Source: Candidatus Latescibacterota bacterium
GTDB taxonomy: Bacteria > Latescibacterota > UBA2968 > UBA8231
Reading direction: 5' to 3'
NCBI GenBank assembly: GCA_965243025.1
Contig: CBDETY010000003.1
Coordinates: 5,472,001-5,536,000 of the forward strand
Length of the DNA stretch: 64,000 nt
How positions within the stretch are numbered: position 1 is the first letter of the stretch; every line of letters starts with the position of its first letter. This document shows, in pieces, positions 24,486-27,456 of the stretch. The notes under the pieces are model-generated. The model saw nothing but the letters and a program-made list of their open reading frames with translations, was not told the DNA's origin and made no database searches. Made by a program: the position numbers and the translations under genes.

Positions 24486-26153
24486 ATGAATGAACACCTC
24501 CCGGCGCTGGGGCGCCTCTGTTTTCGCCTTCCCCCGGAGCGCATGTCCGAGTTCGAGAGCGCCTTCGAGAGCAGGCTGCTGCCGCGGTTGAAAGACCGCG
24601 GTCTCACCCCCGCAGCGGATCTCGGCCGCCCCACCGTTTCCGGGATCTTTCACCGGCTTTTCTCTCTCGGTGGGACCCGTGAGGTAGCGCGGGTCCGCCG
24701 CGATCTTGAAGGAGACGCGGACTGGACCGCGGCGCTCGACGACATCGGGGGGGATCTCGGGGCGGCGATTTCCTGCACTTTCCACAGCTACCGGGCCGTC
24801 GGGGTGGAGGGGCGCCCCGTCGATGTCGACGAATCGACCGAGGGCCGCTGGACGACCTACACCACCGCCAACCTCGTTTCCGGCGACCTCGTCACCTGTA
24901 TCCTGCGCGACAGCCGGCAGCGGTTCTGGTTTACGACCGCCCACGCCGGCACCACCCTGTTCGACGGCAACCAGTGGCAGGACTTCGAACCGGAGACCGG
25001 GCTGCCGATCGACCGCTGCTGGGCCCTGTTCGAGGACAGCGAGGGAGGGATCTGGTTCGGATCTCACCGCAGCGGGGTTACCCGGTTCCACGGCGACAGC
25101 TGGATGTCGTTCACGCAGGAGGACGGGTTGCCCAGCAACAGCGTGATTTCGGGGTACCAGGACAGGCAGGGCAGGCTCTGGTTCGGATCGGACGTGTCGG
25201 AAACCGGGGAGGGGATCGCCTGCCTGGACGGCACGGACTGGACCCATATCACGGTCGCCGACGGTCTCGCCGACAACCGCGTCAAGTGGATCACGCAGGA
25301 CCGCGACAACCGCCACTGGATCGGCACCGCCGGAGGGGTCTCGACCTGTGACGGATCCCGGTGGCAGACCTACGATACCGGGGACGGGCTGCCCGGGAAC
25401 TGGGTCGAGTCGATTCTGCAGGATCGCGAAGGAGACATGTGGGTCGCCACCGACCGCGGCCTGGCCCATTTCGACGGCGTCGGGTGGACGGGGTACACCG
25501 CCCAGGACGGACTCCCCGGAAGCTGGGTGACGGCGGCCTTCCAGGACAGCCGCGACATCCTCTGGTTCGGGACCCTGAACGCCGGCGTCTGCTGCTTCGA
25601 CGGGGAGACCTTCCAGACCCTCGATCACGAGGACGGTCTTTCCGGCGACGCCGTCTGGTGGATCTACGAGGACGAACTCGGGGATCTCTGGTTCGCCACC
25701 GACGGCGGGGTGTCGCGCTACCGTCCGCCGGAGCCGGATCCCCCGGCGGTGAAGCTGATCGCGGTCACCGCCGACCGGCGCTACGAGCAGTTCGACAACC
25801 TCGTGCTGCCGACGTCGGCCGACCTCGTTGCCTTCGAGTTCGACGGGGAGAGCGCGCACACCCGTCACAGCGGCCTGGTGTACCGCCACCGACTCATCGG
25901 CCGCGACGAGGCCTGGCGCACCACGTACCGGCGCCGGGCCGAGTACACCTACCTCGAGCCGGGCACCTACAAGTTCCAGGTTCAGGTCGTGGACCAGCTC
26001 CTCGACTACTCTCCCATACTCGAGACCGGGTTCACCGTGCAGGATCCCCAGGAGGACCGCATCGGCGAGCTCGAGGCCAGCGTGACCGAGCTGTCGCGCC
26101 GGCTCGATGAGGCGAACCGCCGCCTGGGAGAGGCCGGTCTGCCCCAGGTCTGA
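24486..26153 (+). CDS. Two-component-regulator propeller (Reg_prop) plus Y_Y_Y domain protein with no output domain
   Basis: Repeated DGLPxNxV..I.QD..G.(L/M)W motifs; YRHRLIG...AEYTYLEPGTYKFQVQVVD; short C-terminal coiled coil; no signal peptide or TM helix. Confidence 0.85.
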   Translation: MNEHLPALGRLCFRLPPERMSEFESAFESRLLPRLKDRGLTPAADLGRPTVSGIFHRLFSLGGTREVARVRRDLEGDADWTAALDDIGGDLGAAISCTFHSYRAVGVEGRPVDVDESTEGRWTTYTTANLVSGDLVTCILRDSRQRFWFTTAHAGTTLFDGNQWQDFEPETGLPIDRCWALFEDSEGGIWFGSHRSGVTRFHGDSWMSFTQEDGLPSNSVISGYQDRQGRLWFGSDVSETGEGIACLDGTDWTHITVADGLADNRVKWITQDRDNRHWIGTAGGVSTCDGSRWQTYDTGDGLPGNWVESILQDREGDMWVATDRGLAHFDGVGWTGYTAQDGLPGSWVTAAFQDSRDILWFGTLNAGVCCFDGETFQTLDHEDGLSGDAVWWIYEDELGDLWFATDGGVSRYRPPEPDPPAVKLIAVTADRRYEQFDNLVLPTSADLVAFEFDGESAHTRHSGLVYRHRLIGRDEAWRTTYRRRAEYTYLEPGTYKFQVQVVDQLLDYSPILETGFTVQDPQEDRIGELEASVTELSRRLDEANRRLGEAGLPQV

Positions 26154-26168
26154 CAACCCGCAGCAAAC

Positions 26169-26204
26169 AAAAAAAAACCGGACGCGCCGCTGCGACGCGC
26201 CCGG
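26169..26204 (-). terminator. Intrinsic terminator
   Basis: Minus strand CCGGGCGCGTCG-CAG-CGGCGCGTCCGG followed by 9 T; the two G-U pairs form only on the minus strand. Confidence 0.85.
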
Positions 26205-26271
26205 GATACCTCGGGAACCGGCGGGTAAGGCCGGTTCCGTCCAGGTGGTCGACCACCTGGTGAATCGAAGG

Positions 26272-26310
26272 TCAGGTGGTCGACCTCCTTAAGGGTATAC
26301 TACTACTCAC
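26272..26310 (-). CDS. 12-aa micro-ORF MSSSIPLRRSTT
   Basis: GTG start 6 nt after the GGAGG of AGAAAGGAGGTGGTCT; TGA stop; translation unproven. Confidence 0.45.
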   Translation of the reverse strand: MSSSIPLRRSTT

Positions 26311-26471
26311 AGACCACCTCCTTTCTTCTCGGCTCCGGGCCTTTGGCGGTTTACGGTGCCTCGAACCCGTGCTCGTTCAGGTCGGCCGGCGCAGCGTCAC
26401 GAGTTGAAAGACCGGCCTTTCGGCGGGATGCCAGAACGGAAACGGCCCTCGTTCCCGTTTGTGTATTCCCC

Positions 26472-26501
26472 AATATACACAGGGCGGAAAAACAGAGTCA
26501 A
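26472..26501 (-). promoter_or_regulatory. Sigma70-type promoter
   Basis: TTGACT-18 nt-TATATT on the minus strand, near-consensus in a GC-rich background. Confidence 0.7.
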
Positions 26502-26565
26502 CCGCTTTTAACCAGCCCCTGACCACATCGCTGCAAATCCTCGCAACTCAAAGTCCCGCAATTCG

Positions 26566-27456
26566 TTACCGGTTCCACGCCTCGACGTTGGCCGAGAGCC
26601 CGAGCGCGAACTGGCGGCCGGCGGGAAAGTTTCTCCCCCCGAGGCTCTGGCGGACCGCCAGCTCGAGGACTGAGTTTCCGGGCAGCGACAGGGACAGCGC
26701 CGGCGCCAGGTAGGTGATCCGCTTCACCTGTGTCCTGCTGGGAAAGCCGAAGTCCGTACCGGTGAGGCCGCGCAGCACCTGCAGCTTGAGCGCCAGGCCG
26801 ATCCGGCTCCCGGCCTTTCCCCCGGCTTCGAGGTCGATCATCCACTCGTCCCCGGGATCGCGCAGGATCTCCTCGTTTTCGGTACGCACCCGGTAGCCCA
26901 CGCCGGCGTTCGCGTACAGCGGCAGCGGCCAGAAGGAACGGCCCGCCTGCAGGATGAAGTCGAAGTCCCACTGGCCTTCGCCGACCGGTATCAGTCCGTC
27001 CTCGTTGCGGAACTCCCCTGTCGGCATTTTGACGGCGGCCTTCACAGTTACGACAGCCGGGGCCTGAAGCGCCCGCCACTTCGCCAGCAGCCGCAGGTCG
27101 CTGAAACCGCTGTCTCCCACCGGATCGAGGTGCGTGTCGTCGTCGAACTGCTGGTCGAACCAGGGCACCTGCAGGCCGAGGTCGAGACGGTCGCTGGCGC
27201 CGAGAAATCCCTCGACGAACACCGCCCTCGAGTCGTACTCGCCGTTGAAGCGGTACGGCCGCCGGCTCCCGGCATCGTGCATTGTTCCCGTGAATTCCGG
27301 GGCGTTGATGTACCACTCCCGGGCGTGCTGCCGGAACCAGGTGATCTTGCCCCAGGCGCTGCCGGCGGGGAGGGTCCAGGCGCCGGCAGCGGCCGCGTCG
27401 GGAACGAGAATCCCCGCCGCGGCAGCCAACATTACCGCCCACTGCTTCCCATGCAT
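26566..27456 (-). CDS. Putative outer-membrane beta-barrel (MetA/Phenol_MetA_deg transporter-like)
   Basis: Signal peptide ending AAA-GAWTLPAG; SGFSDLRLLAKW, AAVKMPTG, VGEGQWD; alternating beta-strand pattern. Confidence 0.7.
   Translation of the reverse strand: MHGKQWAVMLAAAAGILVPDAAAAGAWTLPAGSAWGKITWFRQHAREWYINAPEFTGTMHDAGSRRPYRFNGEYDSRAVFVEGFLGASDRLDLGLQVPWFDQQFDDDTHLDPVGDSGFSDLRLLAKWRALQAPAVVTVKAAVKMPTGEFRNEDGLIPVGEGQWDFDFILQAGRSFWPLPLYANAGVGYRVRTENEEILRDPGDEWMIDLEAGGKAGSRIGLALKLQVLRGLTGTDFGFPSRTQVKRITYLAPALSLSLPGNSVLELAVRQSLGGRNFPAGRQFALGLSANVEAWNR

Follow-up and report, generated by a model that had tools for sequence, protein, structure and literature searches.

A small RNA gene of Candidatus Latescibacterota built around a complement of the 16S ribosomal RNA tail, a candidate divergent relative of the Ms_IGR-5 RNAs

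A stretch of 64,000 nucleotides (nt) from the genome of a Candidatus Latescibacterota bacterium (the window, in whose positions all coordinates are given) carries at 26169-26501, with all its parts on the minus strand, an element that comparison with its relatives shows to be a real, conserved, single-copy RNA gene. The explanation that we put first, and that may well be right, is that this is a stand-alone gene for an RNA of about 300 nt, a remodelled relative of the Ms_IGR-5 RNAs of Rfam family RF02471, conserved for engagement with the ribosome and not for a useful peptide. The element combines a conserved complement of the 16S ribosomal RNA (rRNA) tail, a micro open reading frame (micro-ORF) of fixed length and a second Shine-Dalgarno sequence (SD2, the first being SD1; Table 1) in register with the stop codon, an architecture that suggests the ribosome as its partner. 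The preliminary description of this DNA had already seen in it a ribosome-binding RNA, with 30S decoy, hibernation and maturation guide as possible roles, or the messenger RNA (mRNA) of a tightly controlled micro-peptide; its ribosome-centred reading appears strengthened by the conservation set out below.

The match to 16S rRNA is real for this host. The genome has a single 16S gene, ending GGATCACCTCCTTTCT, so that the 16-nt pairing with SD1 (14 Watson-Crick and 2 G-U pairs), which the preliminary description had proposed from the 16S ends of other bacteria, holds over its full length against the host's own sequence. The predicted energy of the SD1-16S duplex is -26.1 kcal/mol, as against -8.7 to -14.0 kcal/mol for SDs of 5-9 nt. 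The conserved core of SD1, GAAAGGAGGUGGUY (the 14-mer), varies only at one G/A position and at the final C/U in alignments A1, A4 and A5 and in the pattern scan described below; it shows next to no variation in four families of the class, and one G-U-compatible change in the actinobacterial RF02471. In E. coli numbering, where helix h45 ends at G1529, the complementarity of the 14-mer runs from G1530 to the penultimate C of 16S and so takes in the whole single-stranded tail. Its 5' GAAAG part is not used by ordinary SDs and has no partner within the RNA; the GAAAGGAG half likewise lacks an internal partner, yet it is invariant in the alignments. In what follows, f1 is the family of the window genome (G000), f2, f3, f4, f8 and f9 are other families, and g19 is a genus of f2. 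The 17 genomes of f1, f2 and f3 that were checked all have the tail GGAUCACCUCCUUUCU (in G003 the sequence is cut after CCTCCTTT), and it is the best, and in every case a perfect, partner of the 14-mer; with a tail identical in all 17, covariation between the two sides is impossible. The near-invariance of the 14-mer shows the long 16S complementarity to be under strong selection.

A host that does without SDs, as in Bacteroidia, was considered and rejected, since GGAG/GAGG is most frequent at positions -13 to -9 upstream of first ATGs; in a genome that uses SDs, the element stands out as an exception. The 14-mer, written GAAAGGAGGTG[AG]TC, has three sites in this 6.8-Mb genome: the element, the complement of the 16S gene end and one other. 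The third site (G000:C3 near 1379064-1379077, minus strand, outside the window) matches the complement of the 16S tail exactly over 14 nt (GAAAGGAGGTGATC, which has A in place of G). It was judged by eye, without a Pfam check, to lie inside a coding sequence, and we regard it as a chance occurrence; a second copy of the element in the genome was rejected on this ground. A separate observation on the 16S 3' ends (L001, L062-L077) concerns the precursor: in the 16 genomes whose sequence reaches that far, the mature end ...CCUCCUUUCU is directly followed by a trailer with AAGGAG, AAGGGG or AGGGAG, so that it could fold back on the anti-SD.

Conservation begins exactly at the GAAAGGAGG motif. By BLASTN, the 3' 160 nt of the element were found in 18 of 24 other f1 genomes and in none of 16 genomes of three other families. 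An exact-pattern scan with one genome per species gave 41 loci in Candidatus Latescibacterota or Gemmatimonadota, 12 of them duplicates of loci already in the set; L055 and L056, which do not have the ORF/SD2 architecture, were dropped as chance before any counts were made. A covariance model, R1, built from 40 sequences with hairpin H_a and run on 151 genomes of the phylum, returned exactly one match in 58 of 63 f1 genomes and matches in both f3 genomes; of 30 f2 genomes, 15 gave weak matches (E about 5e-4), and these 15 all belong to genus g19. None of 19 f4 genomes had a match, and neither did any of 36 genomes from ten other families. A looser pattern, made up of the motif, a start codon and a second SD, was present in 114 of 168 genomes of the phylum (f1 58/75, f2 31/31, f4 21/22, f8 2/5, f9 1/6) and in none of the other families, and the reversed pattern used as a control had 0 matches. 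Its absence from f3 (0/3) comes from an ORF there that is shorter than the gap allowed by the pattern. The combination of motif and short ORF, whose recurrence in related genomes the preliminary description had put forward as a check, is thus conserved, and in frame everywhere.

Some relatives depart from the common form. In L010 (G016) the motif and ORF are kept and the downstream CCRGGTG...CCTGG part is missing, and this locus was left out of alignment A5. The f8 relatives L116 and L117 are more distant: the same motif is followed by a 15-codon Cys-rich ORF (MDNSGCAGDCWGCDA in L116), in which UGGGGGUG precedes the stop by 9 nt. An additional, f3-like copy (GGTGGTTGTTATG...AAGGAGG; G154:C1:6904617-6904657 and G156:C704:2139-2180) is present in two f4 genomes beside the copy typical of their family, so at least two paralogous lineages of the superfamily exist within one class.

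The micro-ORF starts 1-6 nt 3' of the 14-mer and stops 9-13 codons later in 55 of 55 unique sequences from f1, f3 and g19, in five length classes and with TGA, TAA and TAG all serving as stop, and it was also found in 26 of 26 type-A sequences (the copies of f2 and f4) and in 76 of the 77 unique metagenome sequences of RF02471 type. The end of the second GGAGG lies 9 or 10 nt from the stop codon (55/55 and 52/52 sequences, and 26/26 of type A). The last sense codon is 6-7 nt from SD2, and the start codon likewise 6-7 nt from SD1; with the stop codon in the A site, the distance from SD2 to the P-site codon therefore equals that from SD1 to the start codon.

An ORF that is kept everywhere with three kinds of stop might belong to the mRNA of a 12-residue peptide with a function of its own, and within RF02471 a peptide end, ...T(C/R)EVAA(S/R), does recur. 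The peptides themselves are not conserved, however: MSSSIPLRRSTT in the window stands beside MSSCIPAGGATT, MSSTSTAGRLIT, MIDLWTCEVAAS, MESTGRSTT, MIATTRRWVV and MSEMTSGGGCR in relatives, that is, 9-13 hydrophilic residues with no signal and with unrelated sequences between lineages. What is conserved follows the nucleotides. GGAGGU is kept in two reading frames, as Arg-Arg in some sequences and Gly-Gly in others, and EVAA is encoded by a conserved RNA motif, GAGGUGGCUGC; the Ser codons 2-3 of the aligned f1 loci are AGU, occasionally AGC and once UCU (L012). Since the peptide sequence is unconserved while the nucleotides are conserved, a functional micro-peptide appears unlikely, and the element as a whole is very improbable as the mRNA of one. 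Codons 2-7 of the window ORF (AGT three times, ATA, TTA and AGG) rank among the rarest of the genome, and they may merely hold the start region A/U-rich.

The preliminary description had recognised no Rfam family, which stands for the window copy: no family reaches its gathering score there, and a scan of the element region at E<=10 returned junk only and no RF02471. It does not stand for homologues in the sister families, where 5 of 7 loci match RF02471 (46.6, 39.7, 32.4, 26.3 and 23.1 bits; gathering cut-off 45 bits), the family that Rfam labels 'Actinobacteria sRNA' and files under 'Gene; sRNA' (small RNA). Class-wide at E<=0.01, RF02471 was found in 51 of 132 genomes (f2 30/31, f4 21/22), one of them above 45 bits; at the same threshold, it was found in none of the 75 other f1 genomes, nor in G000 itself, the 3 f3 genomes or the 14 control genomes. 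When metagenomes were scanned with a pattern derived from the Rfam consensus, at least 118 loci were obtained. In the 77 unique sequences that make up the RF02471-type set, 63 have an ORF of 12 codons ending in TAG and the spacing from SD2 to stop is constant; the RF02471 model scores 60-195 bits in 8 of 11 of these loci tested.

The window copy shares the 5' motif, G[GA]AAGGAGGUGGUC, with this family (GAAAGGAGGTGGTC at 26325-26312, against GGAAGGAgGugGuC in the Rfam consensus), and it has the architecture of an ORF of some 12 codons in which GAGGUG comes 9-10 nt ahead of the stop, here 12 codons with the SD2 end 9 nt before TGA; that architecture is our own description of RF02471 and not the one given by Rfam. 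Thus a stand-alone small RNA gene, the 5' motif, the short ORF, a second (G)GAGGUG and a stop codon held in a hairpin are common to the element and to Ms_IGR-5, and because the motif, ORF and SD2 are also found in true RF02471 members, the architecture is a property of the whole superfamily. The differences lie at the two ends. In RF02471, whose model starts with ACACA, and in type A, where the motif is about 6 nt from the inferred +1 (ACACA), followed by an 11-codon ATG ORF ending in TAG, and the 5' domain of f1 is missing, the motif adjoins +1, whereas about 140 nt separate the -10 box from the motif in the window. The RF02471 3' domain (AAUxCxxGCAGxCACC...) is missing from the window copy, whose sequence after H_a fails to align with model positions 110-184 and which gets no score from the RF02471 model. 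The f1 RNA also adds two GAYCACCU mimics of the 16S tail and a palindromic hairpin, and its host is not an actinobacterium. On this comparison, we regard the window copy as a distant cousin of RF02471, a remodelled and divergent variant beyond the reach of the Rfam model.

M. smegmatis IGR-5 is reported to be a validated but uncharacterised sRNA that is NAD-capped with an A at +1 (bioRxiv 10.1101/2021.12.14.472595), and it was detected again in cold-stress transcriptomes (PMC10454040); RF02471 was validated by RNA sequencing in Streptomyces lividans (PMC8079986) and described as an sRNA transcription unit in S. avermitilis (PMC8780764); and in M. abscessus and M. smegmatis the homologues of MS_IGR-5 are significantly covered by ribosome-protected reads (PMC4974804), which favours translation. 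The portions of the literature on Ms_IGR-5/RF02471 covered by our search, which did not extend to the original 2013 description, contain no functional study and no mention of a match to the 16S tail. As RF02471 is without known function, a match to it names relatives and leaves the mechanism unsettled. The validation of IGR-5 as an sRNA, the filing of RF02471 as one and the stand-alone gene with its own promoter and terminator would all suit an sRNA that acts by base pairing, in which CACCU-type stretches or the 14-mer pair with SD regions of mRNAs or with CU-rich RNAs and the ORF only gates or stabilises the molecule, as in a dual-function sRNA; CACCUG(G/A) segments are indeed present in f1, type A and f3. 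We consider this unlikely: the anti-SD-like segments are mostly buried in H_a and differ between lineages, and the sole invariant stretch is the SD, which has a perfect partner in the 16S tail of every genome checked.

The layout of the element is given in Table 1. The promoter and the strand-specific terminator, the motif, the 12-codon GTG ORF and the second SD motif inside it were all found where the preliminary description had placed them, and its idea of a stand-alone transcription unit is supported by the element's own promoter and terminator and by a convergent downstream gene. Between 25500 and 27200, no promoter-like site was found beside this one (mean 0.1 in 50 shuffles), and a TATATT, TACATT or TATCTT box lies 82-185 nt 5' of the motif in 18 of 19 related loci. 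Across 46 sequences, the terminator stem shows compensatory changes, for example at pair 172:189, which is AU in 26 and GC in 16. The folding energy of the 306-nt transcript is -135.2 kcal/mol against a shuffle mean of -116.95 (z -3.22; 0 of 100 shuffles as good). The 5' domain forms hairpins in alignments A2 and A3 with a column identity of just 44-47%.

Table 1. Parts of the RNA element and their positions in the window
Feature	Position	Strand	Details
Sigma-70-type promoter	26472..26501	minus	TTGACT 26501-26496, 18-nt spacer, TATATT 26477-26472; 10/12 consensus matches
5' domain	26327..26465	minus	about 140 nt; structured, poorly conserved; start near 26465 is inferred
SD1	26311..26326	minus	AGAAAGGAGGTGGTCT (RNA AGAAAGGAGGUGGUCU); complementary to the 16S 3' tail
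Conserved core of SD1	26325-26312	minus	GAAAGGAGGUGGUC
Micro-ORF	26272..26310	minus	GTG...TGA, 12 codons; encodes MSSSIPLRRSTT*
SD2, inside the ORF	26283..26290	minus	AAGGAGGU 26283..26290; TAAGGAGGT 26291-26283; GGAGG end 9 nt before stop
Hairpin H_a	26247..26285	minus	GGUCGACCACCUG (26285-26273) pairs with CAGGUGGUCGACC (26259-26247)
Alternative hairpin H_c	26241..26260	minus	CCAGGUGG-UCGA-CCACCUGG; second 16S-tail mimic GACCACCU at 26250-26243
Variable hairpin	26214..26238	minus	GGAACCGG...CCGGUUCC; length and sequence vary, missing in some relatives
Intrinsic terminator	26169..26204	minus	12-bp stem 26204-26178 (10 G-C pairs), then T9 26177-26169

Upstream of the element in the window is a gene for a Phenol_MetA_deg-type outer-membrane protein on the same strand, and downstream a convergent Reg_prop/Y_Y_Y gene. 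Most f1 flanks are convergent or unrelated; no shared downstream gene was seen among 56 flanking ORFs scanned, and the neighbours differ between genera. With a convergent downstream gene and flanks that differ among relatives, the element is therefore not cis-regulatory. The situation is different in f2 and f4, where rplM follows the RNA on the same strand at a distance of 324-439 nt (a test of 30 downstream ORFs identified 29 as Pfam L13; a different gene is present at one locus, and another locus did not extend far enough for the test). There, a separate conserved promoter (CTTGACA...TATATCTT) stands between the RNA terminator and rplM. Some 290-440 nt downstream of the motif in these loci (L118-L148), we also observed a leader in which GAGAGGAGGUGA stands about 50 nt ahead of the rplM start and a hairpin comes after it; this promoter-leader may be a regulatory leader of the L13 operon. 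A link to rplM in the window genome was rejected, as its rplM is 3.6 Mb away, preceded by an unidentified ORF (not Pfam-scanned) and a promoter, with no such RNA. Flanks of RF02471-type loci vary, with Aminotran_4 upstream in 5 of 14 and a same-strand SBP_bac_3 gene downstream in 3 of 14; on one metagenome contig, a c-di-AMP riboswitch (RF00379, 61.7 bits; L166:790-963) lies about 2 kb from the RF02471 copy.

In leader-peptide attenuators such as those of erm, cat, trp and his, a short ORF is read from its own SD, and its translation rearranges alternative hairpins in which a second SD takes part. The element resembles them in its SD, its short rare-codon ORF, its alternative hairpins including a second SD and its terminator, an anatomy of erm or trp type, and the proximity to rplM in f2/f4 and to SBP_bac_3 in some RF02471 loci would agree with a cis-acting leader that has lost the gene it controls or been separated from it. 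Yet the next gene in the window is convergent, and most f1 flanks are convergent or unrelated; SD2 lies inside the ORF with no start codon following it; the terminator stem is independent, no alternative pairing competing with it in the predicted fold; and rplM has the separate promoter in f2/f4 and no such RNA in the window genome. The element controls no gene, and a leader-peptide transcription attenuator is the most improbable of the explanations weighed here.

The best-supported helix of the RNA is H_a, in which GAYCACCUG is paired with CAGGUGRUC; it encloses the last part of the ORF together with the stop codon, which a hairpin buries in every relative. In the alignment, 95.1% of its cells are paired, with compensatory changes in 4 of 13 pairs (37 cells); none of 500 shuffles reaches the observed score, controls slid along the alignment are 22-53% paired, and RNAalifold predicts the helix as well. 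Its 5' arm (26285-26273) includes, together with the stop codon, the 16S-tail mimic GACCACCU. GAYCACCU corresponds to the first eight bases of the free 16S tail, and the additions peculiar to f1 comprise two copies of it, a 5' domain of about 80-185 nt and CCAGGUGRUC, a copy of the 3' part of SD1. Three mutually exclusive pairings can thus be drawn for the f1 RNA: H_a; SD1 with the in-ORF mimic together with the palindromic H_c; and SD1 with the second mimic. For the window RNA, their predicted energies are -41.9, -39.4 and -38.2 kcal/mol, a span of 3.7. H_c and H_a compete for 26259-26247. The pairing of SD1 with the in-ORF mimic is present in 97.8% of cells, and H_c in 93.8% with almost no variation; SD1 being invariable, both are compatible with the data but not proven. 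In the window and its closest relatives, AGGUGGUCGACCACCU, with GGUCGACC inside it, forms a perfect 16-nt palindrome, at 26247-26262 and 26273-26288; apart from forming H_c, it might allow pairing between two molecules of the RNA.

A helix of this kind might instead serve a protein. H_a would then mimic the SD/anti-SD helix or the GAUCACCU tail and hold bS21 or a 16S 3'-end maturation factor. The support for H_a itself, and its f3 counterpart, in which GAGGUGGG pairs with CCCACCUC, are in line with such a decoy, and there is a precedent in stem P6 of the non-coding OLE RNA, an SD-ASD (anti-SD) mimic reported to be bound by bS21 (PMC12054373). The likeness is that of an intramolecular helix imitating the SD/anti-SD duplex; OLE, on the other hand, is an RNA of about 600 nt from Bacillota with protein partners, lacking both a micro-ORF and a 14-nt stretch complementary to the 16S tail. 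A protein decoy leaves the conserved start, stop, ORF length and SD2-to-stop spacing unexplained, and the tail mimic is unconserved outside f1, which makes this reading improbable. The GGA-binding protein CsrA was not found in the 96%-complete genome (PF02599, 0 matches; positive controls match in 3 of 14 genomes), and only two SD-type GGA sites are conserved in the element; a CsrA sponge of the CsrB/RsmZ type is therefore ruled out. A tmRNA (transfer-messenger RNA) or tRNA-like RNA was ruled out as well, ARAGORN finding no tRNA or tmRNA gene in the window.

Returning to engagement with the ribosome as the selected property, a possible course of events can be outlined. In 55 f1 and 32 type-A sequences, the predicted accessibility of the 5' GAAAGGAG is 0.4-0.74, compared with 0.06-0.28 for the 3' UGGUC, and in this model the open 5' half of SD1 fits a toehold for the 16S 3' end. 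The 16S tail would nucleate on the exposed GAAAGGAG and displace the weak internal pairing of GGUGGUC. The ribosome would then read about 12 codons and thereby melt H_a, releasing CCAGGUGGUC to fold on the downstream GACCACCUGG as H_c, after which the in-ORF mimic GACCACCU would be able to close on SD1; at termination, SD2 may re-pair with the anti-SD. With such refolding after the passage of the ribosome, the RNA would toggle between SD-open and SD-closed forms, the return to the SD1-closed form running, in f1, through the tail mimics. The likeliest use, and this is a guess, would be that the RNA titrates free 30S subunits, or free anti-SD capacity, or reports how much of either is available.

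Several observations weigh against this picture. The 3' half of SD1 is paired in every predicted state, and since SD1 never varies, its pairing with 16S or with the internal mimics is beyond a covariation test. The GAYCACCU mimic and H_c are confined to f1 and missing in f3, type A and RF02471, so the detailed switch would be lineage-specific, while the 14-mer, the ORF and SD2 are general. Translation might be hindered, and not helped, by an SD duplex of 14 bp. The tie between the f1 RNA and RF02471 consists of shared architecture, a one-per-genome distribution and the weak R1 score on g19. A hint in favour comes from expression, which was assessed in four RNA-library runs, taken as assembled contigs and mapped to 25900-26900. 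Two RNA contigs from two sponge-metatranscriptome studies, 95-99% alike, lie inside the element (214 nt, depth 26.2, 26228-26425; 216 nt, depth 6.7, 26212-26409), and two others extend into the flanks (X16, 25900-26435; X17, 26428-26771). Because assembled contigs show neither ends nor strand, they give a weak hint of a discrete, relatively abundant RNA; uncovered parts of the stretch and the two contigs that reach the flanks carry no information on transcript ends. For this lineage, 30S binding, translation and switching are properties that we infer.

A bolder version of the ribosome-engagement reading may be considered. 6S RNA and Ms1 are decoys for RNA polymerase, and in 6S RNA the templated synthesis of a short product drives release. 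The present RNA could be a ribosome-directed counterpart: an mRNA mimic in at least two phyla that captures the 30S subunit via the entire 16S tail, is released when the product of about 12 codons frees the ribosome, offers SD2 to catch the anti-SD at the stop and is closed by the passage itself. The likeness is by analogy only, as a stable small RNA that mimics the normal substrate of a core machine; here the target would be the ribosome and the product a peptide, with no relation in sequence or structure. We hold this extension to be doubtful. If it is true, the free, mature 30S subunits would form a pool that such a 6S-like RNA buffers or reports.

The analysis shows that a second phylum, most of it uncultured, has relatives of RF02471 in almost all genomes of one class, and that a complement of the whole 16S tail, a micro-ORF of fixed length and a second SD registered with the stop codon are conserved throughout the superfamily. 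With these features in hand, the function of the RF02471 sRNA becomes directly testable in its culturable carriers.

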